Shown: one piece after another, positions 20,671 through 48,295 of the stretch
Layout: every line of letters begins with the position of its first letter
Numbering within the stretch: the stretch's first letter is position 1
Assembly: GCA_050115495.1 (NCBI GenBank)
Contig: JASFQK010000004.1
Coordinates: forward strand, 64,001 to 128,000
Length of the DNA: 64,000 bases
Direction of reading: 5' to 3'
From: Phycisphaerae bacterium
Lineage (GTDB): Bacteria; Planctomycetota; Phycisphaerae; UBA1845; Fen-1342
Notes under the pieces: generated by a model
Seen by the model: only the letters and a program-made list of their open reading frames with translations
What the model was told of the DNA's origin: nothing
The model's database searches: none
Program-made: the position numbers and the translations under genes

Positions 20671-22374
20671 CTAGGGCTCGTACGTGAAATTCACGTGATT
20701 CACGCCGTGGCAGTTCAGCGTGCACGAGCCGCGGCGCTGGCCGGTGTCCACGTACCCGCGCCGGCCGCCGACGATGGAGAGGTCGAAGTTGATCAGGTGC
20801 CCGTGGTTGCCCGTGCTGCCGCTGACGCCGTGGGCCGTGTGGCACGCGCTGCACGGCGTTCGCCCGCGGACGACGTGCTCGCGGTGCAGTGGGAAGCTCT
20901 CGTCGCCGAGAATCGACGCCCGATCGTGACAGCCATAGCACAGCGCATACGCCTGCGGCGATTCGACGGTGTAGTCGCTCGTCTCGTACCGGTCGGCGAG
21001 CAGATACGCGTAGCGCGACCCGTGCGGTCCGTTCACGAGCGTCCCGCCGGCACTGCGGGCGTCCGGGTTGTTGTGGCAATCCTGGCAGCTCACGAACCGC
21101 CGGGCCTGCACTTCCGGCGTGAGGCTCGGCACATCGGCCCCGAGTCGGCGAGGAAACGCGACCGGGTGCGCCGAAGCGGTCGTTGGCAGGAACTGGCGGC
21201 GTACGTTGCCGTCGGTGTCCCGCTGGCGGACGATGCGCTCCGGCACGTACACCGGCCGATCCGCGTGACAGCGGAAACACACTTCGTAGTAGAACCGCGC
21301 CGCCGACAACGGCGCTCCCGTCAGCGACACGCCCGGAACATCCTTCATCGCCGGCGGCACGAGCGGCCCGACCACGCCGACGCGCGTCGCCGTGTCGCCC
21401 AGCGTCGCGTTTACCGCGTGCGGGTTGTGGCAATCGGCGCACGTGACCATCACCGACGGCCGCAGCCCCCGCGCCGGCGACCGCTCCGGATTCAGCACGT
21501 GGCTGAGCCGATGCCCGCTGCGCAGATTCAGCACGGGCATGATGTCGGTAGCGCTCAGCCCGTCGTGGCAATTGAGACAGAGCCGATCCGGCCGATCGCG
21601 CAGCAGCCGCGGCCGCCACGGCGCGCTATGCGACACGTGACACGCCGCACACGCATTATCCGCCAGCGAGCGGTAGGGGAGCGCTTCGCCATTCGTCGCA
21701 CTCGGCGGCACCGAGCGCACGCTGCGGGCGTGAGCGCTGGCTGACCAGCCGTCCATATCGTGGCACGTGTTGCACAGTGCCCCCTCACGCGACGTGACCC
21801 GCAGGAAATCGCCGAGCTCATTGTTATGTGGATCGTGGCACGCCGTGCATTCCAACTCGCCCCAGCGCCCCAGCTTCAACCGATGATCGACCAACTCCGG
21901 CGAGCGGAGCTGCCGATCGCGATTGCACAACGCTCGGTCGTACCGCAGCCCGACCGGATGATCGTCCGACAGATCGTTCGTCAGATCGCTCGGCCCCGAC
22001 GGCATGTACGGATGCGTCAGCGGAATCGGTTCTGTCGCCGCCCGATCGAGCGTCAGCCCGAGGGCGATGCTGCCGTCGTGACAGCTCAGGCAAAGCCGAC
22101 TGGCCGGCCCCGGCTGCCCGATGCGGGCGTCGGTCGTATCGCTGCGGTAAATGCGATAGTACGTCGTCGGCTGATGGCGGTTCCACAACGGAGCCGCCGG
22201 GTCGGCGTTGTGCGGCGTGTGGCAGAAGATGCACACCTGCGTCTCTTCGAGCGCCCGCACCGGCCCCGGCCCCCAGATCGACAGGTCATGTTTCGAGCGC
22301 ACGACCGAATCGTCCGCCCCCGCCACCCCCAGCAGCATCAGGCTCAGCATGGTGGCGACTACGACCCGCATCAT
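20671..22374 (-). CDS. Exported multiheme cytochrome c (11 CXXCH + 1 CX3CH) with N-terminal OmcE-like tetraheme domain
   Basis: Signal peptide; SKHDLS...CIFCHTPHNA...PLWNR...CLSCHDG...DLSDDHPVG...CTACHDPHNN..FLR...LCNTCH, then 7 more CXXCH and a terminal CTLNCH. Confidence 0.9.
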   Translation of the reverse strand: MMRVVVATMLSLMLLGVAGADDSVVRSKHDLSIWGPGPVRALEETQVCIFCHTPHNADPAAPLWNRHQPTTYYRIYRSDTTDARIGQPGPASRLCLSCHDGSIALGLTLDRAATEPIPLTHPYMPSGPSDLTNDLSDDHPVGLRYDRALCNRDRQLRSPELVDHRLKLGRWGELECTACHDPHNNELGDFLRVTSREGALCNTCHDMDGWSASAHARSVRSVPPSATNGEALPYRSLADNACAACHVSHSAPWRPRLLRDRPDRLCLNCHDGLSATDIMPVLNLRSGHRLSHVLNPERSPARGLRPSVMVTCADCHNPHAVNATLGDTATRVGVVGPLVPPAMKDVPGVSLTGAPLSAARFYYEVCFRCHADRPVYVPERIVRQRDTDGNVRRQFLPTTASAHPVAFPRRLGADVPSLTPEVQARRFVSCQDCHNNPDARSAGGTLVNGPHGSRYAYLLADRYETSDYTVESPQAYALCYGCHDRASILGDESFPLHREHVVRGRTPCSACHTAHGVSGSTGNHGHLINFDLSIVGGRRGYVDTGQRRGSCTLNCHGVNHVNFTYEP

Positions 22375-23402
22375 GCACCCTCCGCCAGATACTGGAACAC
22401 CTGCACCCGGCGATTGTAACTGTCTGCGATCCAGATGCGATCCTGCCCGTCGATTGTGATGCCCGACGGCACCGAGAACTCGCCCGGCCCCGTCCCGCCC
22501 TGACCGAACGCCAGCAGCAACTGCCCCTCCGGCGTGAAGATCTGCACGTTTTCGAACTGGTTATCGAGCACGTAGACGTGTCCCGCCGAATCCACCGCCA
22601 CGCCGCGCGGCCGCGAGAAATCGCCCGCGGCGTCGCCTTTGCGGCCGAAGACGGCGAGCGGCCTGCCTGTCATGCTCAGCACCTGCACGCGGAAGTTCAT
22701 GGCGTCGACGACGACCAGCCCTTGCTCCGGGCAGATCGCGACGTCGCTGGGGTAGTTGAGCGCGCCCGGCACGCCGCCGCGCCGGCCGAAGCGCTCGCCA
22801 ATATCCGTCAATCCGCGACAGGCGACGCAGGCGTGCGCGGTAACGTCCGCCAGCCACAGCGTCTGCTGCGTCTCATCCCACGCCGCCGCCGCCGGCGCGG
22901 CGATCTCCGGCCACCGTCGGGTGCAACGCCACGTTCCATCCGGCTCGAACAGATCGACCGCGGCGCGGGCCCGATCGACAACGACCAGCGTCCGCCCACC
23001 CTCCGCCAACTCGACGTCGATCGGCACTTGCAGCGGATCCGCCGGCGAGCCCGTCGTCACCGCGTACGTCCGCGCTTCGAGATCCAGCACATGGACGGCG
23101 GCGAGGCCGGTGTCGGCGACGAAAACACGCGAGCCGGCGACAGCCACCGCCGACGGACGCGAAAACGCGCCTTTCGGCGCCGGTCCAGTCAGCGCCGCCC
23201 GCATCGCCTCCCACCCGCCGACGCGCCGATGCAGATCCGCCTCGCCGCGCAGCTCCCCCACGTACCGAATCCGGGCCTGGTCCGGCGGCTTCGGCCACAC
23301 GATCGCCGGCGAGACCTCGGGAAACACCGGTTGCAGCGGCCCCTGGCAGCCCATCGCCGCCAGCAACACCACCAGCATGACCGGCCCGGCGACGCGCCTC
23401 AT
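22371..23402 (-). CDS. NHL-repeat beta-propeller lipoprotein
   Basis: LAAMGC lipobox; repeats FSRPSAVAV, LNYPSDVAI, FSRPRGVAVD, FSVPSGITID...IADSYNRRVQVF; translationally coupled to both neighbours. Confidence 0.9.
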   Translation of the reverse strand: MRRVAGPVMLVVLLAAMGCQGPLQPVFPEVSPAIVWPKPPDQARIRYVGELRGEADLHRRVGGWEAMRAALTGPAPKGAFSRPSAVAVAGSRVFVADTGLAAVHVLDLEARTYAVTTGSPADPLQVPIDVELAEGGRTLVVVDRARAAVDLFEPDGTWRCTRRWPEIAAPAAAAWDETQQTLWLADVTAHACVACRGLTDIGERFGRRGGVPGALNYPSDVAICPEQGLVVVDAMNFRVQVLSMTGRPLAVFGRKGDAAGDFSRPRGVAVDSAGHVYVLDNQFENVQIFTPEGQLLLAFGQGGTGPGEFSVPSGITIDGQDRIWIADSYNRRVQVFQYLAEGA

Positions 23403-25516
23403 CGTTCCTTCCTCGCCAGAACCGGGATGTCCCGCTTCAGCTTCAGCCAGAACGCCGCCGAGTTGTCCCGTGAGCCCGGTAGATCGAGCAGGTCGTACTC
23501 CGCCTCGAACCGCAGCGAGAAGTAGCCGATGTGCCACTCCACCGCCGCGTTGAAGTCCACGCCGTGCGTACGCCCGTACAGCGTGTCGTCCTCAAACCGG
23601 TACATGCCGCTCGCCGTCAGTTCGAGCTGCCGGCTCAGCAGTTGGCGATACGACAGGCCGCAATCGAGCAGCGTCGTGTTGCGGGCTTCGAGCCCTTCCG
23701 ACCCGTCGAACCAGAAGCGCGACAGCGTGCTGCGCCCGTCGAGCTGCCTATCCGCCGCCTGCCAGATGACGACGTCGCCGTTGGCGTGCACCGCCTGGAA
23801 CGGATCGATGGCGTCGTCGTTGTATTCGTATTCGAGGCCGGCGGACCACCGCGGCTGTCGGAACGTCGCCCCCAGCCGGTGCCGGTTGACGTTGCGGGCG
23901 CGGAAGCCCAGGTGCTCGCCGCGGTCCAGGTCCTCGTTCTGCACCGACGCCGCGTAGTAGGGCGTCAGGCCGCAGTCGAACGCCTGCTGCATGCGGAAAT
24001 CGATGCGATCGCGGGCCACGTCGTAGTTGTTCTGGACGCGGTACGTGTAGCTGACCAGAACGCCTTGCCGGTCGGCGATCTGCCCGGTCGGCATGCGTCG
24101 CAGAGCCGTATACCGGCCGAGCGGAACGACCAGGTAGTCGCGGCCGGCCAGGTACGTCCGCGTGCGGTTGGCGTCGGTAACGACCAGGCTGCCCAGGTTC
24201 ACGTCGGTGTGCGCCAGGTAGACCGGCAGCGGGTCGCGGAACGTCACCGACTCACCGATGACCACGCCGCTGCGCCGCCCGTTGCGCGTCTCGGTCGAGG
24301 CGTGGTTGTACGACAGGTTCGCGCTGAACCGGCCGAGATCGTTGTCCCGCGTCAACGCCGTGCCGAGCATGCCGCCCCACTCGTCCCAGTCGGCGTTCTC
24401 GTCGGCGCTGGTTTGCAGGGCGTAGAGCTGGGCCGACGTGGTCAGCCAGTTGTCGAACTGGTGCGTGAGGCCGGCCTCGCCGCGCCAGGTGCTCGTTTCG
24501 AGATCCTGGAACGTCTCGCGCAGATACTGCGCGGCGAAGTTCGTCGCCAAGGCGTCGGTGCACTGGAGGCGCAGGCGCGAGGAGAACTCGGCCAGATCGC
24601 GGGCCAGATCGCCGGACTCGTCCTGGAACCGGGCCAGTGTTTCGACGGAGCTGCGGCCCTCGGGCCCGAAGCGCAGCACGTGACGGAGCAGGACGTCGTC
24701 GCGCGTCGTGTCGAAGCGCGTGTCGGTGCCGGAGTACCGCTCGCGGCGGTCCTCGTGCTCATATTCGAGCGTGAGGGCGTGCAGTTCGCTGATCTGCCAC
24801 GTGCCCTCGTAGCGCACGGCGTGGCGGCCGCGCTGCTCGTCGTCGCTCAGATCGTGCGTGCGGCTGGTGAGCTCGTCCCATTCGTGCTCGAACGTCAGCC
24901 GCATGGGCAGCTTCTCATCGTTATAGAACAGGCCGGCGGTGTATCGCTCGCGGGTACGGTCCAGGCTGGGCAGAAACGCCCGCGGCAGCCGGCTGCTCTC
25001 GCGGGAGGCCTGTGCCGTGGCGGAGAGCTTGCCACGCGGCAGGAACGTCAGATTCACGTCGTATTCGAACAGATCGCCGTGGGCCCGGCTGTCCCGGTCG
25101 CGGCCGGTCCAGGTCTCGTGGAAGTGCTCCTGCGACAACCCCCAGCGCAGATCCCAGTCGAATTGCAGCACGCGGTCGTCGATGACCGACCCGGCCCCGC
25201 GTGCGCCGAACGTCTCTTCGAGCCGCCAGGCCCGGTCCGTCTGTTTCGCGTAGCCCCCGCGTGCCCCGGCCACCCGCGAGCGGTTCTCACGTCGATCGGC
25301 CTGCGCCTCGAAGCCGAGCTCGAAGGTCAGCTCGTCGAAGGCGAACAGACCGCGTTCGTTGCCGGCGGGCGCCGTAGCCGGCGCCGGTGCCGATGTGGGC
25401 GCGGAAGTTACGGGTTGAGTAGTGGGGGGCGAAGCGGGCGGTTCGGCGAGCGCGGCTGCGCCCGGCAGAAGCGCCGCCCCGAAGGCAACACCGACGAAGC
25501 GGAGAGGCCGTCGCAT
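23399..25516 (-). CDS. Putative large outer-membrane beta-barrel protein (porin-cytochrome conduit or secretion channel)
   Basis: Signal peptide, Pro/Ala-rich linker, ~650 aa of alternating aromatic/polar beta-strand pattern, no hemes; co-transcribed with NHL and multiheme genes. Confidence 0.7.
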   Translation of the reverse strand: MRRPLRFVGVAFGAALLPGAAALAEPPASPPTTQPVTSAPTSAPAPATAPAGNERGLFAFDELTFELGFEAQADRRENRSRVAGARGGYAKQTDRAWRLEETFGARGAGSVIDDRVLQFDWDLRWGLSQEHFHETWTGRDRDSRAHGDLFEYDVNLTFLPRGKLSATAQASRESSRLPRAFLPSLDRTRERYTAGLFYNDEKLPMRLTFEHEWDELTSRTHDLSDDEQRGRHAVRYEGTWQISELHALTLEYEHEDRRERYSGTDTRFDTTRDDVLLRHVLRFGPEGRSSVETLARFQDESGDLARDLAEFSSRLRLQCTDALATNFAAQYLRETFQDLETSTWRGEAGLTHQFDNWLTTSAQLYALQTSADENADWDEWGGMLGTALTRDNDLGRFSANLSYNHASTETRNGRRSGVVIGESVTFRDPLPVYLAHTDVNLGSLVVTDANRTRTYLAGRDYLVVPLGRYTALRRMPTGQIADRQGVLVSYTYRVQNNYDVARDRIDFRMQQAFDCGLTPYYAASVQNEDLDRGEHLGFRARNVNRHRLGATFRQPRWSAGLEYEYNDDAIDPFQAVHANGDVVIWQAADRQLDGRSTLSRFWFDGSEGLEARNTTLLDCGLSYRQLLSRQLELTASGMYRFEDDTLYGRTHGVDFNAAVEWHIGYFSLRFEAEYDLLDLPGSRDNSAAFWLKLKRDIPVLARKER

Positions 25517-25804: not shown

Positions 25805-26488
25805 ATGATGCACGGACGGCCTAGCCGTATCGCGGTCCTGGCCGGCTTGGCCGTTGCGGCCGGTAGCCTCCTCTTCGCCCAGGTTGCCGACCAGGGACCA
25901 CCGGGCGATACCGACGCGCCTCCGCCTGCGTCCCAGCCCACGTCGCAGCCGGCGGAAATGGGCGCTGCCCGCGCCCATCTCGTCAGCGGCCTGATCGGCA
26001 GCAAGCACGATTTCACTCAAAACGGTCGCCTCGGACGTGATTTGTGCCTGCCCTGTCACACGCCGCACCTGGCGTCGGCGCCGACACCGCGGTTCGATCG
26101 CCGGCCGGAGACGACGCTGCCGCTCCGGCCGTACGATGCTCCCGGCATTGAGCTGACGGGCTGGTCGCTGCTCTGCCTGGGTTGTCATGACGGCGTGACC
26201 GCACCGGACGTCTACTCCTCGGCCCATGCCCTGATCGCCGACGACGCCCTCGGAAACTCGCGGCTGGGCACCACGGGCCTGCGCAGCCACCCGGTGGGCA
26301 TCGTCTACCCGGCCAATGGCGAGGGCTATCACCCGCGGGCGGCGGTCGAGGCCGCCGGTCTGCTGCTGCCCGACGGCCGTATCCAGTGCACAACCTGTCA
26401 CGATGCCCACAACACGCATCGTCACAGCGGCATGTTGAAGATTTCCAACCAACAGAGTCGGCTTTGTCTGACATGTCACGATCTCTAG
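25805..26488 (+). CDS. OmcE-like tetraheme cytochrome c
   Basis: AGGAG RBS, signal peptide; GSKHDF...CLPCHTPH...CLGCHDG...SHPVG...CTTCHDAHN...LCLTCH near the C-terminus. Confidence 0.85.
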   Translation: MMHGRPSRIAVLAGLAVAAGSLLFAQVADQGPPGDTDAPPPASQPTSQPAEMGAARAHLVSGLIGSKHDFTQNGRLGRDLCLPCHTPHLASAPTPRFDRRPETTLPLRPYDAPGIELTGWSLLCLGCHDGVTAPDVYSSAHALIADDALGNSRLGTTGLRSHPVGIVYPANGEGYHPRAAVEAAGLLLPDGRIQCTTCHDAHNTHRHSGMLKISNQQSRLCLTCHDL

Positions 26489-28497
26489 ACAAGTGCAGGT
26501 CAGCGCGACGCCGAGTGGCCGGGGGGCTGGTCGTGGTCGCGCTCGTCGTGCTGGCCACGGTTGCGGGGTTGACGGGTGCGGGTTGCGCCGGCGGCGAGCG
26601 CCACGGGCCGTCGGCGTGGCCCGCCTACCCACCTGCTCCGCAGATCCCCCGTGTGCTCGCCCGCGGCACGCTCCGCGGGGCGCCGCCGCCGTCGTCCTCT
26701 TCTGTCGAGCTCTCCATGTTCCTCTTCGGGGCGGAGCCGCCGGCCAAGCTGGTGCTGCTGAACCCGACGGGGCTGGCCGCCCGTGGCGGCGAGTCGCTCA
26801 TCTGTGACAGTGCCGTCGGCGAGTTGCTCTGCTGGAACGCCGACACCGCCCAGTTGCACGGCGTGGCCGCCGATCCGCCGCTCGACCGTCCCTTCGCCGT
26901 CGGTCTCACCAACGATGGCGGGACGCTCATCTGCGACCGGTCGGGCGTTCGCCGGAACGACGCGGCCGGGCGGCTTCAGTGCCGGTACACGCTGGCCGAT
27001 GAGCCGTTCAAGCCGGCGGGCGCGCTGGCCGTCGGCGAAGAGGTCTGGGTGACGAACCTCGCCCAGCATCGCGTCGAGGTTTTCGCCGCCGATACCGGGG
27101 CCCATCTCCGCTCCATCGGGCGGCACGGCAGCGGGCCGGGCGAGTTCGCCCTGCCGCGCAGCCTGGCCCGCACGCCCGACGGCAACGTCTGCATCGTTGA
27201 CGTGCTGAACAACCGCGTGCAGATGCTCGCCCCCGACGGAACGTGGCTCCGCGACATCGGACAGCCGGGGGACAACGTGGGTTCGTTCGGGCGGCCGAAG
27301 GACGTCGCCGTCGGCCCCGACGGCACTATCTTCGTGACCGACGCTTTCTCGCAGCGCGTGCATGCCTTCGCTGCCGACGGCACCGTGCTGCTGGCGTTTG
27401 GCGAGCCCGACTCGGGCCCGAACGCTCTCGTGCTGCCCAGCGGCATCGCCGTCTCCACCGTCCCGCCCGAGCACTACACGCCGCTCCCCCCCGGCGAAGA
27501 TGTGTCGTATTACGTGCTCGTCGCCGAGCAACTGCACGATCCCGGCGTGCGCGTGTACGCCTGGCTCGACGCGGCGGGGCGGGCGGAGGACGCGCCGCTT
27601 TCCTCCGGCATCGCTACGCACTGGCAGCCGCAGTTTCCCCAGTCGGCGGCCATTAACCCGCACTGGCATCCCGACCGTTGCGACAAGTGCCACAAGCTGG
27701 AAGACGGCCGGCGTTTGCCCATTCCGCCGCAGGACGTCGATGCCGTCTGCGTCTCCTGCCACGACGGCGTGCAGGCTTTCGCCGATCCGCATCCCATCGG
27801 CCGCCCGGCCGTGACCGATCTCGTCACCACGCCCGATGACTGGCCGACCGTCGACGGCCGGATCGGCTGCCTGACCTGCCACGATATGGAGCGGCACTGT
27901 CGGCCCGACGCCCAGCGGCCGGACAGCAACGTCGTGCTCCTGCGGCACTTCGACCCGCAGCGGGCCCTCGCCTACTGCGAGACCTGTCACCGCACCGAGC
28001 TCGGCTATCGCTTCAGCCCGCATCGGCAGCGCGACGCCCAGGGCAAGATCCGCGAGGATGCCTGTCTCTTCTGCCACACGCAGACGCCGGAAGTCCCCGC
28101 CGACGGCCGCCGCCGATTTGAGCCGCACCTGCGTGTGGAAAGCTCGGCGTTGTGTCTGAATTGCCACAGCAAGCACTGGGACCTGTCGCCGCTCGGGCAC
28201 GTCGATCGCCCGGTGACGCCGCACATCCGCGAGTGGATGCTGAAACGCGAACTGAGCCTCGACACGCAGATCACGCCGGCGGAGCTGGCCAGGATGGCCG
28301 CCGACCCCAAGCGGCACCCGGCGCGTCTGCCGCTCGGCGAGAACATGGTGACCTGCTACACCTGCCACAACCCGCACTACAACGGCCTGTTCCCGCCGGA
28401 CAGCGAGGTCGGCGCCCTCGCCAGCAACCCGCAGGATCGCCGCAGCGCCCTGCGCACGGACTGGATCGACCTGTGCTCCGAATGTCACGAACGGTAG
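26473..28497 (+). CDS. NHL beta-propeller / octaheme cytochrome c fusion lipoprotein
   Basis: GAGC lipobox-like; NHL repeats, then CDKCH, CVSCH, CLTCH, CETCH, CLFCH, CLNCH, CYTCH, CSECH. Confidence 0.88.
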   Translation: MSRSLDKCRSARRRVAGGLVVVALVVLATVAGLTGAGCAGGERHGPSAWPAYPPAPQIPRVLARGTLRGAPPPSSSSVELSMFLFGAEPPAKLVLLNPTGLAARGGESLICDSAVGELLCWNADTAQLHGVAADPPLDRPFAVGLTNDGGTLICDRSGVRRNDAAGRLQCRYTLADEPFKPAGALAVGEEVWVTNLAQHRVEVFAADTGAHLRSIGRHGSGPGEFALPRSLARTPDGNVCIVDVLNNRVQMLAPDGTWLRDIGQPGDNVGSFGRPKDVAVGPDGTIFVTDAFSQRVHAFAADGTVLLAFGEPDSGPNALVLPSGIAVSTVPPEHYTPLPPGEDVSYYVLVAEQLHDPGVRVYAWLDAAGRAEDAPLSSGIATHWQPQFPQSAAINPHWHPDRCDKCHKLEDGRRLPIPPQDVDAVCVSCHDGVQAFADPHPIGRPAVTDLVTTPDDWPTVDGRIGCLTCHDMERHCRPDAQRPDSNVVLLRHFDPQRALAYCETCHRTELGYRFSPHRQRDAQGKIREDACLFCHTQTPEVPADGRRRFEPHLRVESSALCLNCHSKHWDLSPLGHVDRPVTPHIREWMLKRELSLDTQITPAELARMAADPKRHPARLPLGENMVTCYTCHNPHYNGLFPPDSEVGALASNPQDRRSALRTDWIDLCSECHER

Positions 28498-29853: not shown

Positions 29854-29912
29854 CAACCCACCCCGCACCGAAGCCGCGGACCAGCAAGCCGCGGCAGGGG
29901 GGCGCAATAGAG

Positions 29913-29949: not shown

Positions 29950-29975
29950 GTCGTTGAGCGGCAGCTCGTATTTCG

Positions 29976-34336: not shown

Positions 34337-34359
34337 GGAAACTCTCGCGCCGCGCGTCG

Positions 34360-38404: not shown

Positions 38405-41400
38405 GTCGTGCATCGCGTCATCGTCGATATGCGATCGCGTGCCTGCTGTTGGCCGCATCGTCTGTCGCCGCGCTCGCCCAGACGGCTCCGCCGTTCATCG
38501 CCGAGCCGGCGCTGATCATCACGCTCGAAGGCACCACGCCGATGCGGCTGCCGACCGCGGTGGCCGTCGGTCCCGACGGCACGATCTTCGTGTGCGACGG
38601 CGTCGCCGACCGCGTCCTTTGCTTCTCGCCCGCGGGCGACTTGCTGAGCGAAATCCGCGACGTCGGCGGTAAGGCTCTCTCCCGCCCCACAGGCGTGAAG
38701 GTCGACGCCGCCGGTTTGCTCTGGATTGCCGACACCGGCCACGGCCGCGCCGTTGCTCGCGGGCCCGACGGCCGCCTCGTCCACGAGTTGTCTTGGCCGT
38801 CCGATGCCGCCGCGCCGGCCGACGTCACCGACGTCGCGATCAGCCCCGACGGCACGGTCGCCTGGCTCGTCGACAACGATGCTCACCGCATCGCTCGCTT
38901 TGACATTGCCGCCGGAACCGCGCGTCTCATCGGCGAGCCGGGCCAGTCGCTCGGCCAGTTCTACTATCCGTTCATGCTGGCGACCGGTCCTGCCGGCGAT
39001 CTCTTTGTCAGCGAATCACTCAACGGTCGTGTGCAGATCCTCGCCGCCGGCGGTCGCATCCGCGGCCGCCTCGGCGCATTCGGCGCCGACCCCGGCCAAC
39101 TCTTCCGCCCCAAGGGCCTCGCCGTCGACGCCAACGGTAACATCTGGGTCGCCGACGGCATCTTCGGCGTGATCCAGATCTTCCAACCGACGGGCGTTCT
39201 GCTCGACATACTGCGCGACACGGCGGGCAACCCACTGAAACTCGAGACCCCGTGCGGCATCACCCTCGACGGCGCCGGCCATCTGTACGTCGCCGAGCCC
39301 TGGGCGAATCGCGTCCGCCAGTTCAACCTCACGGTCGATCCGCGGCCGATCCCACCCTGGCCCAGTCGCCCGTCGACGAGCCCACTCACCGCGCAGCCGC
39401 GGGCCTGTGCCGTCTGCCACCTGGAATGGGTCGAGCCGCTGGCCCACGGCGTGGCGACGCCGCTAGCGTCGGTTCCGCCGGACACGGCTGCCGAGCCCAT
39501 CGCCAGCGACCCGCGGATGTGCCTGTCGTGCCATGACGGTTCGGTGCGTGATTCGCGACGCCGCGTGTGGGCAATGGCCGGCCATCACGTCGGCGTACCG
39601 CCGCCCGCGGACGTGCCCGTCCCGCGCGACCTACCCCTCGCGCATGGCCTGCTCGCTTGTCGCACTTGCCATACGGCCCACGCCTTGAGCGAGCCCACCG
39701 CCGCCGGCGAGTCCATCATCTTCCTCCGCGTTCGCGAAACTGCCGGCGAACTCTGCACCGGCTGTCACGCGCAACAAATGGCCGGCCCCGCCGCCGGCAT
39801 GCACAAACTCGGTGACATGCCCGGCGATATACCCGCGAGCCTCCTCGCTGCTGGTGGCCGACCCGGCCGCTCGCCTACTGAGCTCGCCTGCCTCACCTGT
39901 CACGCGACTCACGGCGTTACCGGCGAAACGGCCCTCGTCGTTCCGAGCCACTCGCCGGCCATGTGCGCCGATTGCCACGAACTACAACAGCCGCAGCTCT
40001 TCGGGTCCGGTAACACCGCCGGCCATCCGCCGCACCCAACTCTCGCCGCTCACCAGATCGAAGTCATGCAACAAGTCGGTGGCGTACTCGGACCGCAGAA
40101 CACGCTCGACTGCGCCACGTGCCACCAGCCGCACGCTGGCGACGGCGCGACGCATCTCCTCGCCGCACACTTGAAAGTCGACACCATCTGTCGCGAGTGT
40201 CACGAGCCACAGCGCGCGGTGGAAGGCTCGCTGCACGATATACCGCCCGATAACTCCGCAACGCACAACGCTTGCCGTACTTGCCACAACTACCATACAG
40301 ATGCGCGCACGCCGCAGCCGACCGAGCTCGATCCCGCCGGCCATTGCCTGAGCTGCCACCAGCCCGGCCAGCCCGGCGCGGCCCGCGTCCTGGGCTCGCC
40401 GAACCACCCCGAGGTCGCCTGTGCCGGCTGCCACGATCCGCACGAATCGCAGCACGGCCACTTCCTCTCCGCCCCGGCCGGCCAGCTCTGTAGCAGTTGT
40501 CATGAGGAAGAGGCCCGCGTCGCCGGCGGCACGCACGATTGCCTGACCGATTCGAGCCAGTGGCCGTCAGAAGCCGCCAATACGCACGATACCTGCCTCG
40601 CCTGCCACCGCGCCCACGGCAACGAGCAGACCGGCCTCTACCGCCTCGCCGCCGCCGACTCCACCGGCTCAAGTGGCGTATGCCTCTCCTGCCACCCGTC
40701 GGCTGTGCCCGGCGGTCGCGAGGCGCTGGCCCTGGCGCACCCGCTCCCGGCTGCTAGCGTCGCTGCCGAGATGAGTCTTCCGCTCGATGGCGTCGGTCCC
40801 GACCGCCAGATCGCCTGCCGCACCTGCCACGATCCCCACGCCGGCCCCGGCTCCACGACGATGCTCCGCACGCAAGTGCCCGGCGGCGCCGGCGAGCAGG
40901 TCTGTTTCGCGTGCCACGAGGAAACCGCCAATATCCACAGCATTGGCCACGCAGCAGGTTCCCTCCGCGACGCCGGCTTCGCGTCGGAATCGTGCCAGCC
41001 GTGCCACGTGACGCACGCTGCCGCCGACGCGATCGATCCGCAGCTCCTGTGGCCCAAGGCCCTCGCCGAATACGCCGGCATGCCCGACGTCGCCGTCGCC
41101 GACCAGCCGTGCGTTGCTTGCCATCGTGTTGGCGGCCCGGTGACCCCGCCGACCATCGCCACGCATCCCGAGGCCGAGATGCTTAATCTCGAGTCGCCGA
41201 CCTCGCCGGGGTATCTGCCGCTATTCAACGAGCGCGGCGAGGTCGATCCGCAGGGCCACATCGCCTGCCGCACGTGCCACCTGACGCACGGCCGCAGCAT
41301 GCCGGCGGTACTGCCCGCGGAGGTCCGCAACGTCGCCGGCCGCGAACTCCGGGCCCGCTCCTGGCACGTCCGCTCGTTCGGGCCCGGCAACGTCTGCACG

Positions 41401-41505
41401 ACCTGCCACGGGCCCGATGCCCTCCGACGCTTCATGTACTTCCACAATCCCGCGCGTCGCGGCGGGCCGATCGAAGGCGGCGCCCCGCCCGTGCTCGCGC
41501 CCTGA
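38401..41505 (+). CDS. NHL beta-propeller / 20-heme cytochrome c fusion
   Basis: GTG overlapping the previous TGA, signal peptide, NHL repeats, 20 CXXCH mostly in doubled CxxCHxxH...CxxCH units. Confidence 0.9.
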   Translation: MSRASRHRRYAIACLLLAASSVAALAQTAPPFIAEPALIITLEGTTPMRLPTAVAVGPDGTIFVCDGVADRVLCFSPAGDLLSEIRDVGGKALSRPTGVKVDAAGLLWIADTGHGRAVARGPDGRLVHELSWPSDAAAPADVTDVAISPDGTVAWLVDNDAHRIARFDIAAGTARLIGEPGQSLGQFYYPFMLATGPAGDLFVSESLNGRVQILAAGGRIRGRLGAFGADPGQLFRPKGLAVDANGNIWVADGIFGVIQIFQPTGVLLDILRDTAGNPLKLETPCGITLDGAGHLYVAEPWANRVRQFNLTVDPRPIPPWPSRPSTSPLTAQPRACAVCHLEWVEPLAHGVATPLASVPPDTAAEPIASDPRMCLSCHDGSVRDSRRRVWAMAGHHVGVPPPADVPVPRDLPLAHGLLACRTCHTAHALSEPTAAGESIIFLRVRETAGELCTGCHAQQMAGPAAGMHKLGDMPGDIPASLLAAGGRPGRSPTELACLTCHATHGVTGETALVVPSHSPAMCADCHELQQPQLFGSGNTAGHPPHPTLAAHQIEVMQQVGGVLGPQNTLDCATCHQPHAGDGATHLLAAHLKVDTICRECHEPQRAVEGSLHDIPPDNSATHNACRTCHNYHTDARTPQPTELDPAGHCLSCHQPGQPGAARVLGSPNHPEVACAGCHDPHESQHGHFLSAPAGQLCSSCHEEEARVAGGTHDCLTDSSQWPSEAANTHDTCLACHRAHGNEQTGLYRLAAADSTGSSGVCLSCHPSAVPGGREALALAHPLPAASVAAEMSLPLDGVGPDRQIACRTCHDPHAGPGSTTMLRTQVPGGAGEQVCFACHEETANIHSIGHAAGSLRDAGFASESCQPCHVTHAAADAIDPQLLWPKALAEYAGMPDVAVADQPCVACHRVGGPVTPPTIATHPEAEMLNLESPTSPGYLPLFNERGEVDPQGHIACRTCHLTHGRSMPAVLPAEVRNVAGRELRARSWHVRSFGPGNVCTTCHGPDALRRFMYFHNPARRGGPIEGGAPPVLAP

Positions 41506-42016
41506 CGTCGCCGACACGTAGCGCAAAGATTGGCGCCCTGGGCTCTCGAGAATTATCGGGGGAGGGCGACGATGTGCGGGGCATCGGCCGATAGTTCTCT
41601 TTGTGACGGGCGCGTTGGTCTGTATACTGAGATCAAGGTCTCGGGTGGCGGCACACGGACGCCGCGCCTCAATCACCCGGCATATCTGCGCCACCCATGG
41701 ACCGCAAGGACGGCGAGCCACGACAGGAGCCTCGAACGATGATCGCTCGGGCTGTGCGCCGCACGAACGTCCCTGTCGGGCCTGCGCCGGCCGCGAGGTC
41801 ACCTGACGCGGTCCCTCCGGGGCAGGGGGGACTACACGTCAGCGAATCGATGTCGAGCGAGGCCGAGTGCGCGGCGGCGCACGACGTTCCTCGAGTGCTG
41901 GAATGGGTGTGAGGTGTGAGGGAAAAGCGCGAACCCATCCGAATGTCGCGGCGCCCGTGCGGCCAGGTCGTAACGGCTTGAGCGCGGGCAGCGCGGTGTT
42001 CTCAGGAGCAGACACA

Positions 42017-44482
42017 GTGTTGCCGATGGACCCACGGTCGTCTCACCGCCTCCGCTGTCGGCGCGTCGCGGTGCTATTCGCCGCCGGCCTGGCGCTGGGG
42101 GCGGGCCTGTTGCCGGCACACGCGTCGGATCGCGTGGTGCTGTGCGAAGAGTTCACCAACTACTACTGCGGTTCGTGCGCATTCGCCGGCCCGGCGCTGG
42201 ACCTGTTGTTGGACACGTACCCCGACTCGCTGGCCTTCATCCAATATCAGATATTTGACGCCGAATATTCGAAACCCTGGGGCGACAACCGCTGGGCGTA
42301 CTACGAGGCGGAGTACACACCCGCGGCCATCTTCGACGGCACGGACAAGCTGGAAGGCGCCATCGAGGACCTCGACCAGCAGTACACCATCTACCGCGCC
42401 AACCACTTCCTGCCCGAACGGGCCAATCCCACCGATGTGACCGTCGAGTTCGACAACGTCCTTCAGCTCGGCGGCCCGAACTACCTCGTCGACGTCGCGG
42501 TCAGCGTCGAGCCCGGCGGTGTCGCCAAGACCATGGACGTCTACATCGTCCAGGTCCTCGATCACTGGCCCGACACCAAGCCTTATCACCGCAACGGCTT
42601 CAAGCAGGCCGCCCCCGTGGAGCAGATCACCGTCGGCCCCGGCCAGACCGGCTACGCCCAGTACATCTTCTCCCTCGACGACGACAGCGCCGAGCGCGAG
42701 GAAGACGTCAAGTTCATCGCCTGGGCCCAGCAGCCTGAGCCCGGCTTTCCCGCAGCCGTGTACCAGGCCGCCGTCCGTGTCTGGCCGCTGATCACCATCC
42801 CCGGCGACGCCGATGCCGACGGCTATCCGGACGCCGTCGACGACTGCCCCAACCGCTACGACCCCGACCAGCTCGACAGCGACGGCGACGGGTTCGGCGA
42901 CGCCTGTGACAACTGCGACGAAACCTGGAACCCGGACCAGACGGACACCGATGAAGACGGCTTCGGCGACGATTGCGACACGTGCCCTGTGCTGCACCAC
43001 TACAACCAGGCCGACACCGACGCGGACACCATTGGCGACGCCTGTGACTCGTGCCCCGACGTTTACGCCCCGGCGGGCGTCGACGCCTTCGGCCGCTCGA
43101 TCGGCTGCCTCGACTTCGACTGCGACGTCGATACGGATGACCTGCTGGTGCTGAACCGCTGTCTGAGCGGCCCGGATGACACCACGCCGCCGGCCACTTG
43201 CACGCCGGCCGAGTTCGCCCGCGCCGACGTCGACGACGACGGCGACGTCGACCTGGCCGACTTCGCCCTGCTTAGTCAGAACTGCACCGGACCGCTCATC
43301 AGCCCGGCCACGTACGTCGGTGCGGCCAACTGCGCCGACTGCCACTCCGGCAACCACGCCGACTGGATGCAGACCATTCACGCCACCGCCTTCAGCACGT
43401 TGGTGAATGACGGCGCGGGCGACAACGTCCTGTGCTTCCCCTGCCACTCCGTCGGCTACGGCAAGGCCAGCGGCTTCGTCGATCTGGACACCACGCCCGA
43501 TCTGGCCAACGTGCAGTGCGAGAACTGCCACGGTCCCGGCAGCAACCACTTGAGCGACCCGTACGGTTTCCCGCTGGAGCGGCCGCTCGATGCGGACCTC
43601 TGCGGCGCCTGTCACCAGTCCTGCCACGGTCTGTGCGGTGAGAACCACCACCCGCAGTACGAGCAGTGGTCCGAGTCGAAGCACTCCACGGCCCTCATCG
43701 ACATCCAGTGGCTGCCCGACACCGAACAGGAATGCCTCCAGTGTCACTCCACCGACTATCGCCTCGCTCCGCCCGGTGAGGAGCCGCAGGTATGGGAGGC
43801 CATCTACGACCTCGAGTGCGTCGCCTGCCACGATCCGCACGGCGGCCCCAACGTCGGACAGCTTCGCCTGCCCCCGTACGAGCTCTGCGCCGAGTGCCAC
43901 ACCATGGGCGACGTGATGCCGCCCGACATGCCCGATCAGCCGCAATCCGAAATGCTGCACGGCTTCGGCGGCTTCGCCCTGGACGGCACGCCGCTTAACG
44001 GCCCATACAGCATGCACTGGTGGGGCATCGCGGACGAGTGCGCCGTCTGCCACGTGCACGAGGAGCCGTACGGCGGCCCACAACAGCCGGTGAACAGCGG
44101 CCACCTCTTCGTGCACAACCTGCGGGCCTGCCTGCCCTGTCACACCGAGGAGACGGCCACGCTGCTCGTCGAGGGCATGCACGCCGAAGTGACGCTGCGC
44201 CTGACGCGGATCGCCCGCTACTTCACGCCGGGCGACCCGCTCTACATCGATCCGGCGACGCTGCCCCCGGCGGAGCTGGCCCGCTACGAGATCGCCCGGT
44301 TCAACTATCTGCTGGTTGAGGCGGACCGTTCGTTCGGCTCGCACAACCCCGAGTACGCCCGGGCCCTGCTGGGCGAGACCGAGGCGTTCCTCGACATTCC
44401 GCCAATCCTCGGTCCGGGTGGTGGCGGCGAAGGCCCCGTACCAATTCCCGCCTGCGACTATTACGCGGAGGGCTGCCCGTGA
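42017..44482 (+). CDS. Mosaic exported nonaheme cytochrome c: Omp28/thioredoxin-like CxxC domain + thrombospondin type-3 repeats + dockerin/EF-hand-like domain + multiheme domain
   Basis: AGGAG 8 nt before GTG 42017; VVLCEEFTNYYCGSC; DxDGDGFGDACDNC repeats; DFDCDVDTDD...ADVDDDGDVDLADF; 9 CXXCH; DRSFGSHNPEYARALL tail. Confidence 0.85.
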   Translation: MLPMDPRSSHRLRCRRVAVLFAAGLALGAGLLPAHASDRVVLCEEFTNYYCGSCAFAGPALDLLLDTYPDSLAFIQYQIFDAEYSKPWGDNRWAYYEAEYTPAAIFDGTDKLEGAIEDLDQQYTIYRANHFLPERANPTDVTVEFDNVLQLGGPNYLVDVAVSVEPGGVAKTMDVYIVQVLDHWPDTKPYHRNGFKQAAPVEQITVGPGQTGYAQYIFSLDDDSAEREEDVKFIAWAQQPEPGFPAAVYQAAVRVWPLITIPGDADADGYPDAVDDCPNRYDPDQLDSDGDGFGDACDNCDETWNPDQTDTDEDGFGDDCDTCPVLHHYNQADTDADTIGDACDSCPDVYAPAGVDAFGRSIGCLDFDCDVDTDDLLVLNRCLSGPDDTTPPATCTPAEFARADVDDDGDVDLADFALLSQNCTGPLISPATYVGAANCADCHSGNHADWMQTIHATAFSTLVNDGAGDNVLCFPCHSVGYGKASGFVDLDTTPDLANVQCENCHGPGSNHLSDPYGFPLERPLDADLCGACHQSCHGLCGENHHPQYEQWSESKHSTALIDIQWLPDTEQECLQCHSTDYRLAPPGEEPQVWEAIYDLECVACHDPHGGPNVGQLRLPPYELCAECHTMGDVMPPDMPDQPQSEMLHGFGGFALDGTPLNGPYSMHWWGIADECAVCHVHEEPYGGPQQPVNSGHLFVHNLRACLPCHTEETATLLVEGMHAEVTLRLTRIARYFTPGDPLYIDPATLPPAELARYEIARFNYLLVEADRSFGSHNPEYARALLGETEAFLDIPPILGPGGGGEGPVPIPACDYYAEGCP

Positions 44483-45426
44483 GAATCTCGCGACGTGATT
44501 TCCTGAAAGCCGCCGCGGCGGCCACCATGGCCGGGCATCTGGCTCCGGCCGCCCTGGCTCAGTTGCAGAAGGTCCTGGGGCGGGGCGGCGGACCGCGGGT
44601 GATCTGGCTCCAGGGTGCCGGCTGCGACGGCTGCGCCATCTCCGCCCTGAACAGCATTCACTACGCGACGATCGACGACGTCCTGCTCAACACGATCGAT
44701 CTACGCTTCCAGAACAACCTCCAGGCCGCCGCCGGCGACCTCGCCGTCTCGGCCATCGAGGGCGGCACCGCCGAGCCCGGTTACATCCTGATCGTCGAAG
44801 GGGCGATCCCCACCGGCGCCGCGGGCAAGTACTGCCGCTTGTGGCCGGGCATGACCATGCTCGACGCCCTGAACACCTACGCCGCCAACGCCAGCTACAT
44901 CATCGCCCTCGGGGCCTGTGCCTGCTTCGGTGGTGTCACCGGCGGAGCACCCAACCCGACCGCCGCCAGCGGTGTCGGCGGGATCCTCGGCGACGATCCC
45001 CGGTTGATCAACCTGCCCGGCTGCCCGGCGCATCCCGACTGGCTGGTCGGCACGATCACCTACCTGTTGACCAACGGGCACGTGCCGCCGGTCGACGCCC
45101 ATCGCCGACCGCTCCAGTACTTCGGCGAGCGCATCCACGACAACTGCTTCAAGCGCCAGAAGCACTGCGGCGAGTTGACCTTCGCCGAGAAGCTCGGCGA
45201 CGAGGGCTGCATGGAGTACCTCGGCTGCAAGGGCAAGCACACGTACTCCGATTGTCCCATTCGCAAGTGGAACAGCAGCGGCCCGCAACAGTACGGCGTG
45301 AACTGGTGCGTCGGGGCGCACAGCCCGTGCCTGGGCTGCGTGAATCCGACTTTCCCCGACGGCATGTCGCCGTTCTACGTGTACCTGCCCGGTGGGAAGG
45401 ACGAGGGTGAAGGCGGCGAGGGCTAG
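44479..45426 (+). CDS. [NiFe] hydrogenase small subunit (group 1, Tat-exported, no C-terminal TM anchor)
   Basis: SRRDFLK Tat motif; WLQGAGCDGC, VEGAIP, GACACFGG, NLPGCPAHP, IHDNC, GCKG, CPIRKWN...WCVGAHSPCLGC. Confidence 0.95.
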   Translation: MRISRRDFLKAAAAATMAGHLAPAALAQLQKVLGRGGGPRVIWLQGAGCDGCAISALNSIHYATIDDVLLNTIDLRFQNNLQAAAGDLAVSAIEGGTAEPGYILIVEGAIPTGAAGKYCRLWPGMTMLDALNTYAANASYIIALGACACFGGVTGGAPNPTAASGVGGILGDDPRLINLPGCPAHPDWLVGTITYLLTNGHVPPVDAHRRPLQYFGERIHDNCFKRQKHCGELTFAEKLGDEGCMEYLGCKGKHTYSDCPIRKWNSSGPQQYGVNWCVGAHSPCLGCVNPTFPDGMSPFYVYLPGGKDEGEGGEG

Positions 45427-45494
45427 GGTACGGTCCGGGCCCGATCGCCGGTTGCTGAAGACGAGCTGATGACCTCGCGAAGAGGAACTGAGCA

Positions 45495-46943
45495 ATGCCG
45501 ACCACGATCACGCTTGACCCCGTGACCCGCATCGAGGGCCACCTGGAAATCGAAGTCACCGTGGACGTTGTCCGCGGTCAGCAGCAGGTCATCAGCGCCC
45601 GCAGCATGGGCAAGATGTTCCGCGGCTTCGAGATCATCCTGGCCGGCCGCGATCCGCGCGACGCCGCCATGTACACGCAGCGCATCTGCGGCGTCTGCCC
45701 CGTCTCGCACGCCATGGCTTCGAGCCTCAACCTCGACAACGCTTTCGGCGTGACACCGCCGGACAACGGCCGCATCCTACGCAACCTCGTGCTCGGGGCG
45801 AACTTCATTCAGTCGCACCTGCTGCACTTCTACCACCTGTCCGTCCTGGACTATGTGAACACCACCGGGCTGCTGGACAAGTCGCCCTGGACGCCGCGCT
45901 ACGTCACCGCCGACATGGCCACGGGCGCGAACGCCGCCACGCTCGTCTCGCACTACGTCGCCGCCCTGGCCATGCGCCGCAAGGCGCACCAGATGGGGGC
46001 GCTCTTCGGCGGCAAGCTGCCCTGTCTCGGCTCCTTCGTCGTCGGCGGCTGCACCGAGGCCGTCACCGCCGAGAAGATCGCCGACTTCCGCAGCCTGCTC
46101 ACCGGGCTGCGGTCCTTCATCAACAACGTCTACCTAGCCGACGCCAACACGCTCGGCGACCTGTTCCCGACGTACTTCACGCTCGGCGGCGGCAACGAGA
46201 ACCTCCTGGCCTTCGGCGTGTTCGACCTCGATTCGTCCGGCGCGAACCGGTTTTTCTCGCCCGGCCGCTACGCCGGCGGGGCGTTTGAGTCGATGGATCC
46301 GGCCCAGATCGCCGAATACGTGATGCACTCGTGGTACACGCCCGCCTCGGGGAACCTGAACCCAGCGCAGGGCGTCACCGAGCCTGACGCCGAGAAGCAG
46401 GGGGCGTACTCCTGGCTCAAGGCGCCGCGCTACGCGGACCTGCCTTACGAGCTCGGCCCGCTGGCCCGCATGTGGATCAACCACGACTACACACGCGGCA
46501 TCTCGGCCATGGACCGCATCATCGCCCGCGCCCAGGAAACCAAGAAGATTGCCGACGCCATGGACGGCTGGCTCGACGAACTAACCCCGGACATGTCCGG
46601 CTACGCCACGAGCGAGATCCCCGTGCAGGCCACCAGCGCCGGCCTGACTGAGGCCCCGCGCGGCGCCCTCGGTCACTGGATGAACATCACAGACTCGACG
46701 ATCAGTCGCTACCAGGTCATCACGCCGACCGCCTGGAACGCCTCGCCCCGCGACGACGTGGACGTGCCCGGTCCGATCGAGGCGGCACTGGTCGGCGTCC
46801 CGGTCGCGGATATCGAACAGCCGGTCGAAGTGCTCCGCATCGTGCACACCTTCGACCCGTGCCTGGCCTGTGCCGTGCACATGGTTCGCCCCGGCGAGCG
46901 CGTGCCCGCCAGCCGTGTGCTGCTCCAGCCCGGACTCGGTTAG
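45495..46943 (+). CDS. [NiFe] hydrogenase large subunit (group 1a-like)
   Basis: DPVTRIEGHL, QRICGVCPVSH (L1), EAPRGALGHW, PTAWN, FDPCLACAVH (L2) plus a 20-aa cleavable extension. Confidence 0.96.
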   Translation: MPTTITLDPVTRIEGHLEIEVTVDVVRGQQQVISARSMGKMFRGFEIILAGRDPRDAAMYTQRICGVCPVSHAMASSLNLDNAFGVTPPDNGRILRNLVLGANFIQSHLLHFYHLSVLDYVNTTGLLDKSPWTPRYVTADMATGANAATLVSHYVAALAMRRKAHQMGALFGGKLPCLGSFVVGGCTEAVTAEKIADFRSLLTGLRSFINNVYLADANTLGDLFPTYFTLGGGNENLLAFGVFDLDSSGANRFFSPGRYAGGAFESMDPAQIAEYVMHSWYTPASGNLNPAQGVTEPDAEKQGAYSWLKAPRYADLPYELGPLARMWINHDYTRGISAMDRIIARAQETKKIADAMDGWLDELTPDMSGYATSEIPVQATSAGLTEAPRGALGHWMNITDSTISRYQVITPTAWNASPRDDVDVPGPIEAALVGVPVADIEQPVEVLRIVHTFDPCLACAVHMVRPGERVPASRVLLQPGLG

Positions 46944-46967
46944 CCGCCCCGACGAGAAGGACGGTTG

Positions 46968-47465
46968 ATGCTCGTGCAAAACGGTCAAGACGAACAGACC
47001 GCCACCGACCGCTGCCCCGTCCTGGTGCTCGGTCTCGGCAACATCCTGTTGCGCGACGAGGGCGTCGGCGTGCGCGTGATCGAGACGCTGCGTGAGCGGT
47101 CTCGGCCGGAGGGCGTCGAGTTCTTCGATGGAGCCACCGCCGGCCTCGACCTGCTGGACGTCCTCGCCGATCGGCGGACCGTCGTCGTCGTGGACGCCAT
47201 CGCCGGCGACTACGCCCCGGGCACGGTCCTGCGCCTGACGCCGGAAGACCTGCTGCCGAGCGATCATCCCGGCGTCTCGCTGCACGAGATGGGCATCCTG
47301 GAGACGCTGACCGTCGCCAGACACCTGGGTAATGCCCCGCACGAAGTTGTCATCATTGGTATTAAGCCGTTCGAGGTCGATTACGGCCTGAACCTCACGG
47401 ATGAAATGCAACGCCTGATGCCGGACATCCTGGCCCTGGTGTCGGCGGAACTGGAGAAGCTGTGA
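46968..47465 (+). CDS. Hydrogenase maturation endopeptidase (HyaD/HybD family)
   Basis: [31 protein letters not shown]. Confidence 0.93.
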
Positions 47466-47509
47466 CGCGCGGCGGAGCCTGGCCGCGAGTCCGCAAGGGA
47501 AGCTTTACG

Positions 47510-48295
47510 ATGAAACCGCTCGCCTTCATCCCGGTCGTGGTCCTGGTAGCGCTCCCGGTGCTCGTGGCTTTGCTTCCGGCGACGACCCCCGTCGCAGTCG
47601 CCGAGCCGGCCTGGGGCCAGAACTGCTTGGCCTGTCACGACTTACTGCAAATAAACCTGCTCAATGTCGTTGGGGCGGACCTCATCGCCGACCCCGACGA
47701 GAGCGGTACCGGCGCCCCGGATCGCGGGCCGCTCCCGGTGTTCCGCGTCGGCCCGGGCGGGAACAAGACCATCCGTGTCGCGGTCTCCGGCCTGATGACC
47801 GGTGATACCTATGCGGTCGAGCTGTTCCGGCTGCGGTTCCCGGGCGTCGTGCAGGGCGGCGAATTGACTTACTCCGGCGATTGCGCCTGGGCCGAGTGGG
47901 GCAATCACGCTAACTACTTCTCCGATCCGGACGTGTCCGCCCCGTGGCAGCCCGGCGCGACCACGCATGAGTTCGACATTCATATCGGCCCCGATGCCGC
48001 GGAAGACTTCTACGACGTGGCCTTCGCCGTGGCTGGCAAGTTCGGCGGGGACGATTCACAGCTCTTCTACGCCGCAGAACACTTCTATATTCAGGTTCAG
48101 GGGCAAGTCGGTGATGTGAATTGCGATGGGACGGTCGACAACTTCGATATCGCGGCGTTCGTGCTGGCGCTAACCAACCCCAGCGCATACGAGGCCCGCT
48201 ACCCGGACTGCGACCGCATGCTGGCCGATATCAACCAGGACGGTCTGGTGGACAACTTCGACATCAGCGCGTTCATCGACCTGCTGACGGGCTGA
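47510..48295 (+). CDS. Exported putative monoheme protein with C-terminal dockerin-like domain
   Basis: Signal peptide, [20 protein letters not shown]...[21 protein letters not shown]. Confidence 0.85.

Follow-up and report, generated by a model that had tools for sequence, protein, structure and literature searches.

The closest described relatives of the locus reported here are the omcE clusters of Desulfuromonadia, the uetA-J cluster of Ca. Tenderiales and the DFE_0448-0451/DFE_0461-0465 clusters of Desulfovibrio ferrophilus. According to the main text of PMC13712944, the smallest omcE cluster encodes OmcE, a large barrel and two each of multiheme cytochromes and propeller lipoproteins; the same text names omcE clusters in five phyla, Planctomycetota not among them, and offers no anchor or tip candidate in omcE operons. 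The uet cluster, as outlined in the accessible text of bioRxiv 10.1101/2022.05.06.490989, combines a tetraheme, an undecaheme, a barrel of ~28 strands and two NHL proteins, and the DFE clusters combine multihemes with NHL propellers, no porin being reported in the parts of PMC5815863 and PMC9769857 that describe them. A porin-scaffold-cytochrome cluster with OmcE-like proteins is also outlined for Acidobacteriota (bioRxiv 10.64898/2026.05.27.727921, in its accessible part). Here we examine positions 20671-48295 of a 64,000-nucleotide stretch of DNA (the window) from a Phycisphaerae bacterium of the order UBA1845 (assembly GCA_050115495.1, contig JASFQK010000004.1). The genes of this region, designated A to Q, are a mosaic of two independent gene sets whose side-by-side union is particular to this genome. 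Within the first set, A-L, the core A-F is by gene content an order-wide member of the omcE/uet kind in a new phylum. The second, M-Q, is a hydrogenase cassette, apparently an undescribed variant of periplasmic hydrogenase modules.

Open reading frames (ORFs) were taken from six-frame translation, protein families from hidden Markov models (HMMs; Pfam, TIGRFAM/NF) and PDB homologues from phmmer searches; the barrel was modelled with AlphaFold2, its strands were assigned with DSSP, and trees were built with FastTree. Three core genes lie on the minus strand. Gene A (20671..22374) encodes a secreted 12-heme cytochrome with 11 CXXCH motifs and an invariant CX3CH, whose N-terminal four-heme domain resembles the solved OmcE filaments (E 7e-25 to 9YUQ, from D. 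soudanensis, and 1e-24 to 7TFS, which we take to be that of G. sulfurreducens). It is the best-conserved member (43-70% identity): across 41 sequences none of the 12 heme motifs varies, nor do 14 additional His. Modelled without hemes, it reached a low pLDDT (per-residue confidence) of 46.6. Gene B (22371..23402) encodes an NHL beta-propeller lipoprotein (PF01436, lipobox-like AMGC). Gene C (23399..25516) encodes a large beta-barrel of the outer membrane with an inserted beta domain. The model of C (pLDDT 90.6, predicted template modelling score 0.76, ~28-29 long strands) bears out the putative barrel of an earlier reading of the sequence, the original prediction. Its best structural match is chain B of the Mtr complex (Z 18.2, root-mean-square deviation 9.4, 427 residues aligned, 10% identity), with LptD and TonB receptors nearly as close; C belongs to no Pfam family and has no MtrB HMM match even at E 10.

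The other three core genes are divergently oriented, on the plus strand. Gene D (25808..26488) encodes an OmcE-like tetraheme with a signal peptide, a candidate nanowire subunit. A search with the single sequence gave E 3.6e-9 to 9YUQ and 1.5e-6 to 7TFS, and the family profile gave 3.9e-22 and 4.6e-17. D keeps all eight His of OmcE; the four distal ones are kept in 30/34 and 52/61 homologues (two sets that overlap in genomes), the misses being divergent copies. Gene E (26473..28497) encodes a lipoprotein in which an NHL propeller is fused to an octaheme domain; in some relatives (L079, L080, L200) propeller and octaheme are two separate genes. Gene F (28540..29853) encodes a c554/OcwA-like octaheme lipoprotein (E 3.9e-10 to 6I5B). 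We take 6I5B to be OcwA of Thermincola potens (PMC6703420).

The core therefore has the same skeleton as the minimal omcE cluster and the uet cluster, which makes it a known kind of cluster. It shares with the omcE cluster an OmcE-like tetraheme with eight His, a large barrel, two propeller lipoproteins and further multihemes, and system II heme maturation is present in this genome; the barrels are comparable as a type, both being large outer-membrane barrels. Here, in contrast, the second propeller is fused to an octaheme, the layout is that of two divergent operons, a second OmcE domain heads the in-operon 12-heme protein, and no glycosylation block was seen in the window. The likeness to the uet cluster, as far as that cluster's accessible description goes, is one of composition only: no c7 trihemes, cupredoxin, PPIase or ccs/Bat genes are among the genes of 20671-48295, and the host here appears heterotrophic and anaerobic. 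The DFE clusters, which we could liken by description, differ in their reported lack of a porin. The original prediction had seen in these genes a hybrid of Geobacter and Shewanella types; that reading is not supported, given the match to the published omcE and uet clusters and the near-core standing of the genes in the order. In deeper families (L161, L164-L180, L212-L215) the core takes the form of one operon encoding, unfused, a pentaheme, barrel, NHL protein, 11-heme, tetraheme and NHL protein; some tetrahemes there have no second distal His at its usual distance, and two copies are present in several genomes.

In order to determine how widely the core occurs, we counted its genes in 60 related genomes (the relatives), in a class-wide sample of 48 genomes of the order and 252 of other orders, and no farther than 10 kb from the 80 top-ranking barrel loci of a species collection, many of them cut by contig ends; one barrel match (G038, 56 residues, E 2.5e-4) was removed before counting. 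Barrel and OmcE-profile matches coincide in the same 45 relatives, which we call core-positive, the other 15 being core-less. In the class-wide sample the barrel is present in 42/48 genomes of the order against 22/252 from other orders, 21 of these 22 at 22-29% identity, and A was found in 10/400 genomes of a phylum sample. Of the 80 barrel loci, 77 have B, which adjoins the barrel, 68 have A, 63 D, 54 E and 37 F, and tree distances of A and C over 39 loci are strongly correlated (Spearman 0.94). From the barrel counts, the neighbour counts and this correlation, we conclude that the core is no island but has long been a near-core trait of the order. All 80 loci are titled Phycisphaerae or Planctomycetota except one 'bacterium', and they include fen_1342 (60% identity), PLA2, PLA6 and an AMX-MBFR record. 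With a window GC of 67.6%, near the 68% given in the accessible text of PMC11266412 for the family FEN-1342 of UBA1845, this agrees with the Phycisphaerae-like genome originally proposed and points to UBA1845, probably to FEN-1342. Proteins resembling A and C turn up in many further phyla and are leads only. Zinc-ribbon membrane genes flank the locus at 17360-20631; they are resembled by a tandem of eight paralogous ~300-aa membrane proteins with N-terminal zinc ribbons elsewhere in the genome (L190:1847-9659, G000:C7).

Further along the plus strand is an operon whose first gene, J (35341..37260), encodes a CbcL-like fusion of eight c-type heme motifs to an FdnI-type cytochrome b membrane domain (PF01292; E 4.5e-5 to 1KQF_C). 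The eight heme motifs and the membrane His are invariant in 13 sequences, and a crude scan gives ~5 hydrophobic helices. J is present in 36/45 core-positive and 0/15 core-less relatives, and is a candidate menaquinol oxidase. As in CbcL of G. sulfurreducens, described in the accessible text of PMC9129911, a multiheme c domain in the periplasm is joined in J to a di-heme b domain in the membrane; compared by description, J has eight c-type motifs (two non-canonical) against nine and ~5 helices against six, and it has its own partners, K and L. Gene K (37244..38404) encodes a membrane-anchored cytochrome with two CXXCH and a CX4CH, always downstream of J, and L (38401..41505) an NHL propeller fused to a 20-heme domain, a candidate periplasmic wire that follows J-K in several relatives. 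Divergent from this operon on the minus strand is I (34360..35007), a PAS-LuxR regulator (PF00989, PF00196) found in 13/60 relatives, all core-positive. It is divergent from a J-type gene in 8/13 and so most likely controls J-K-L. The central PAS-LuxR regulator of the original prediction is thus a real gene, but it goes with the CbcL-like operon and not with the hydrogenase.

Two accessory genes on the minus strand separate this operon from the core. G (29976..31541) encodes a lipoprotein of the octaheme tetrathionate reductase (OTR) family (TIGR04315, 460 bits against a cut-off of 375; E 7.8e-105 to 1SP3). A Lys plays a role in the catalytic-heme region of octaheme tetrathionate reductase, and G, set against 1SP3, keeps the GK..N.IN.FC stretch. 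An 18-nt tandem repeat at 31354-31443 encodes a TTDGDG linker behind the lipobox of G, a flexible tether. H (31827..34154) encodes an OmcA/MtrC-family decaheme lipoprotein (TIGR03507, 265 against a cut-off of 209; E 1.1e-9 to MtrF 3PMQ) and occurs in seven of the 60 relatives, 7 core-positive and 0 core-less. We found no MtrA or MtrB genes beside H, and no gene of the locus reaches the TIGR03508 cut-off; an MtrCAB operon was rejected, since the decaheme H is present and the adjacent MtrA/DmsE decaheme and MtrB porin were not found.

The hydrogenase cassette occupies 42026-48295 on the plus strand. Its first gene, M (42026..44482), encodes a secreted fusion of an Omp28-like thioredoxin domain, TSP3 repeats, a dockerin-like domain and an OcwA-like nonaheme (NF045500 at E 3.7e-29, PF02412, PF00404), the nonaheme showing a local similarity to 6I5B (E 4.3e-20). 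Both this nonaheme and the octaheme F resemble OcwA, a cell-surface terminal reductase (PMC6703420, in its accessible part); M differs in its three added N-terminal domains and its tie to a hydrogenase. Named homologues of M are from Phycisphaerae or Planctomycetes, except one 'bacterium'. The small subunit N (44479..45426) carries a twin-arginine translocation (Tat) signal (TIGR00391 above cut-off, PF10518), and a scan found no C-terminal membrane anchor or hydrophobic helix in it. The large subunit O (45495..46943; NF033181, 600.1 bits) has the motifs RICGVC and DPCLAC; its best PDB matches are periplasmic NiFeSe enzymes and its best HMM and PDB matches are HysA-type, and we call it group-1a-like on these best matches. 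A NiFeSe enzyme was rejected, since DPCLAC has Cys in the window and in all 13 relatives shown. The maturation protease P (46968..47465; PF01750, TIGR00072) and a secreted monoheme protein with a C-terminal dockerin-like tag, Q (47510..48295), complete the cassette, which has no cytochrome b of its own. Cytochrome c3 is the partner of Desulfovibrio HysAB-type hydrogenases. The cassette shares with these group 1a enzymes the best matches, a Tat small subunit without anchor and an implied soluble cytochrome partner; here, however, the large subunit is of the Cys form and the partners are the thioredoxin(Cys/Sec)-TSP3-dockerin-nonaheme fusion and the tagged monoheme.

Large-subunit orthologues (E below 1e-200) are present in 14/60 relatives. 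Of these 14 genomes, 11 retain the order M-small-large-protease-Q, as does one genome more; contig ends truncate the cassette in two of the remaining three, and the third is without M. In the 20 cassette stretches examined, which for six genomes included 17-29 kb of upstream sequence, M is the only multiheme ORF. The thioredoxin motif of M is CxxC in the window and UxxC in relatives: in five of ten readable orthologues (L031, L032, L034, L038 and L201, from G001, G031, G003, G026 and G248; L039 is also such a form) the first Cys is replaced by TGA. All five TGA forms are followed by codons GCG GGT C(C/A)C GCG able to pair, as against 1/5 of the Cys forms. Hairpins resembling a selenocysteine insertion sequence behind the TGA have no significant folding energy (z +0.9 to -1.2), so that the support is the codon pattern. 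Furthermore, 47/104 database homologues of M start just past the motif, as expected of unrecognised selenoproteins. The TGA forms are likely selenoproteins that are cut short by gene callers. In G026, a heme-less paralogue of M carries TGA too.

The tag of Q is found on 164 ORFs of the host genome (5.97 Mb, 92% complete), 149 of them bearing it at the very C-terminus, and is probably a lineage-specific sorting signal. Among 75 homologue tails of Q that were scanned, 15 are PEP-CTERM and 11 dockerin; the breadth of the tag family and its replacement by PEP-CTERM point to surface sorting. A metagenome scan with Q returned only six loci, matching mostly the tag, and a complex prediction of Q with the hydrogenase dimer (score 0.02; runs 0.02/0.32/0.02) gave no answer and counts neither way. 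Two large secreted genes downstream of the locus (50245-53541 and 53562-56708) also bear the dockerin-like tag. The monoheme domain of Q belongs to an unnamed family of ~120 clusters (P0242-P0360) with interchangeable C-terminal tags (dockerin-like, PEP-CTERM, Ig/BACON stalks), and in P0247 it is fused to a hydrogenase protease.

Six-frame translation recovers exactly the inventory first reported for the region, 11 cytochrome ORFs with 87 CXXCH (A 11, D 4, E 8, F 8, G 8, H 10, J 6, K 2, L 20, M 9, Q 1) and four independent CX3/4CH; a fifth CX3/4CH string, in the nonaheme of M, reuses the second Cys of a CXXCH. The chance level in the host genome is ~0.7 isolated CXXCH per 27.6 kb, and the next densest 27.6 kb holds 29. 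HMMs likewise confirm the named parts (Tat small subunit, large subunit, protease, PAS-LuxR, OTR, OmcA/MtrC, c/b fusion and NHL genes), and sequence searches support envelope-spanning electron-transfer genes with OmcE-like and MtrC-like parts and a CbcL-like architecture. A 36-kb contig from a separate assembly is identical to 29001-48576 (0 differences) at even depth, although its run may be the source of this DNA; short exact pieces of several modules occur in two further wetland-labelled runs. The GC content at third codon positions of all modules (0.84-0.89) is close to that of clpB (0.88), no tRNA was found in the stretch, repeats in the locus are coding only (heme-motif and linker repeats), a promoter and terminator scan of the locus stayed at chance level, and protein A had no match among plasmids. 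A chimeric contig was rejected on the identical, separately assembled contig at even depth and the host-like third-position GC, and a mobile genomic island on that composition, the lack of tRNA, the purely coding repeats and the near-universal core; that the host is a known metal reducer was also rejected. The region is real, without sign of chimera or recent foreign origin.

The host genome also holds HypA, D, E and F, TatC, SelA, MqnC, alternative complex III (ACIII), a bd oxidase, three other hydrogenases and a ResB-CcsA-type (CcsBA) fusion. The fusion is a single 1194-aa protein (L181:10781-14362, G000:C9), the genome's only PF01578 match, and would mature all c-type cytochromes, including the CX3CH and CX4CH sites. 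The heme-attachment and Hyp genes to be confirmed elsewhere in the genome are thus there, and a lack of maturation systems was rejected, as Ccs, Hyp and Tat genes were found. No heme-copper oxidase/NorB, acetyl-CoA synthase or full-length molybdopterin reductase match was found in the 92% complete genome. This gene content agrees with an anaerobic heterotroph that uses menaquinone and has few soluble acceptors, a point in favour of outward electron flow. A second cytochrome locus (L183:5985-12614, G000:C41) encodes a 23-heme protein in an Hmc-like complex, with an NrfD/HmcC-like protein fused to six hemes, a TmcC/HmcE-like membrane protein and an ArsR regulator. A possible H2-sensing unit (L187:7388-11493, G000:C1) consists of small and large hydrogenase subunits that lack a Tat signal and, after them, a hybrid histidine kinase; an unusually long UvrA of 1613 aa has three CXXCH-like strings (L186:7631-12469, G000:C25).

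We consider it probable that A-L encode an outward extracellular electron-transfer chain with an OmcE-type filament and that M-Q are a separate H2-uptake unit that adjoins it here. Genes, motifs, the fold of C, synteny and co-occurrence are observed; polymerisation, localisation, direction and every electron-transfer step are inferred. In such a chain, menaquinol would be oxidised by J with K, and electrons would cross the periplasm via L with its 20 hemes and via the octaheme lipoproteins E and F. The barrel C, with the propeller lipoproteins B and E, would export or seat the OmcE-headed A, itself a candidate barrel-associated anchor or tip or, in a UetJ-like role, trans-membrane wire, and the tetraheme D would polymerise into the filament. 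The MtrC-like H and the OTR protein G may serve as optional terminal reductases. The uptake hydrogenase of M-Q, soluble, group-1a-like and exported through Tat, would have the nonaheme M, and perhaps Q, as acceptor; its electrons could enter the periplasmic heme pool, the conduit itself being independent of H2.

Several observations weigh against this reading. An OmcE-like sequence is no proof of filaments; D is only ~30% like the OmcE domain of A, has diverged from OmcE more than A has and carries no PLWNR stretch, and 13/95 of its counted homologues are without one distal His at the expected place. The structural match of C to MtrB is generic, at 10% identity, and the trees of A and C share 15/36 splits, with mixed family labels. 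The relatives are kin rather than independent samples, so that Fisher tests overstate significance and co-occurrence counts are descriptive. In addition, the accessible text of PMC9769857 reports that deleting related DFE clusters left Fe(III) reduction by D. ferrophilus unimpaired, and related uet and DFE clusters are linked, in the accessible accounts of them, to electron uptake, so that the direction could be inward.

A porin-cytochrome conduit without a filament, in which A runs through the barrel, D acts as a monomeric partner and electrons are also stored on the hemes, is possible though rather unlikely. It would suit the high conservation of A and its surplus His, the divergence of D, which lies apart from A-B-C in G030, G025 and G035, and the ~91 hemes in one locus, a number that suits a capacitor. 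However, a stand-alone tetraheme with a signal peptide and the eight-His pattern of OmcE is present in every barrel-positive genome.

We regard as unlikely an inward flow, with electrons from minerals, metal, electrodes or partner cells passing through A, C and D to the quinone pool via J or ACIII, in an anatomy that overlaps the outward chain. The gene set is that of the uet uptake cluster as far as described and resembles DFE clusters induced by donor starvation; ACIII and the bd oxidase are in the genome, and the order is frequent in autotrophic enrichments according to the accessible text of PMC11266412. Yet the partner in the inner membrane that is inherited with the conduit is CbcL-like, and in Geobacter CbcL works in outward flow (PMC9129911, accessible text); OTR- and MtrC-family reductases accompany the conduit, and the acetyl-CoA synthase and heme-copper oxidase were not found in the 92% complete genome.

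The original prediction had joined all these genes in one co-regulated, H2-linked island coupling H2 oxidation to the outer-surface conduit, a claim that fits their adjacency on one verified contig, the shared strand and 520 bp gap of J-K-L and M-Q, the M-like 8-9-heme genes inside 16/80 core loci, by which the heme domain of M is related to a conduit accessory, and the ten relatives that carry both systems somewhere. The hydrogenase failed the co-conservation check: its orthologue is present in 10/45 core-positive and 4/15 core-less relatives (Fisher p=0.73), leaving 35/45 core genomes without it; in 10/10 relatives with both systems it is on a different contig from the barrel and the CbcL-like gene (five of these contigs are short and could hide adjacency), and I is missing from all four hydrogenase-only genomes. 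Because hydrogenase presence is independent of the conduit and the two are never on the same contig in relatives, the single island is unsupported and distinctly improbable.

The original prediction had also held the system to be undescribed in this lineage. This stands for the architecture: in the literature covered, which excludes supplements and most subscription papers, neither architecture is described for Phycisphaerae or UBA1845, and the negative for the cited cluster papers is one of their main texts, since homologue lists in their supplements might include Planctomycetota. It does not stand at marker level, as FeGenie-level matches of DFE variants and CbcL in Phycisphaerae bins are in print (bioRxiv 10.1101/2022.03.26.485925, accessible text), and iron-reduction potential is reported for four Planctomycetota metagenome-assembled genomes (PMC10732223, accessible text).

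If the core is a working nanowire, a whole uncultured order that is usually seen as scavenging heterotrophs of sediments, digesters and anammox reactors would be a candidate metal reducer or partner in direct electron exchange between cells, and the barrel or 12-heme gene would be a simple marker for testing its electroactivity. Gene A would be a concrete candidate for the anchoring or capping of OmcE filaments, listed as open in the accessible text of PMC13712944, and in the cassette H2 oxidation would be wired, unusually, to a (seleno)thioredoxin-cytochrome fusion. As a more speculative picture, and one we think unlikely to hold in full, UBA1845 Phycisphaerae of anammox granules, digesters, wetlands and sediments may build nanowires as an order, with the 12-heme A as the missing filament anchor or tip. 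A subset of them may add a surface-associated hydrogenase whose H2 electrons, never crossing the inner membrane, would pass through the OcwA-like nonaheme to a thioredoxin-type Cys/Sec site that reduces disulfides or polysulfide outside the cell, or else would go to neighbours.

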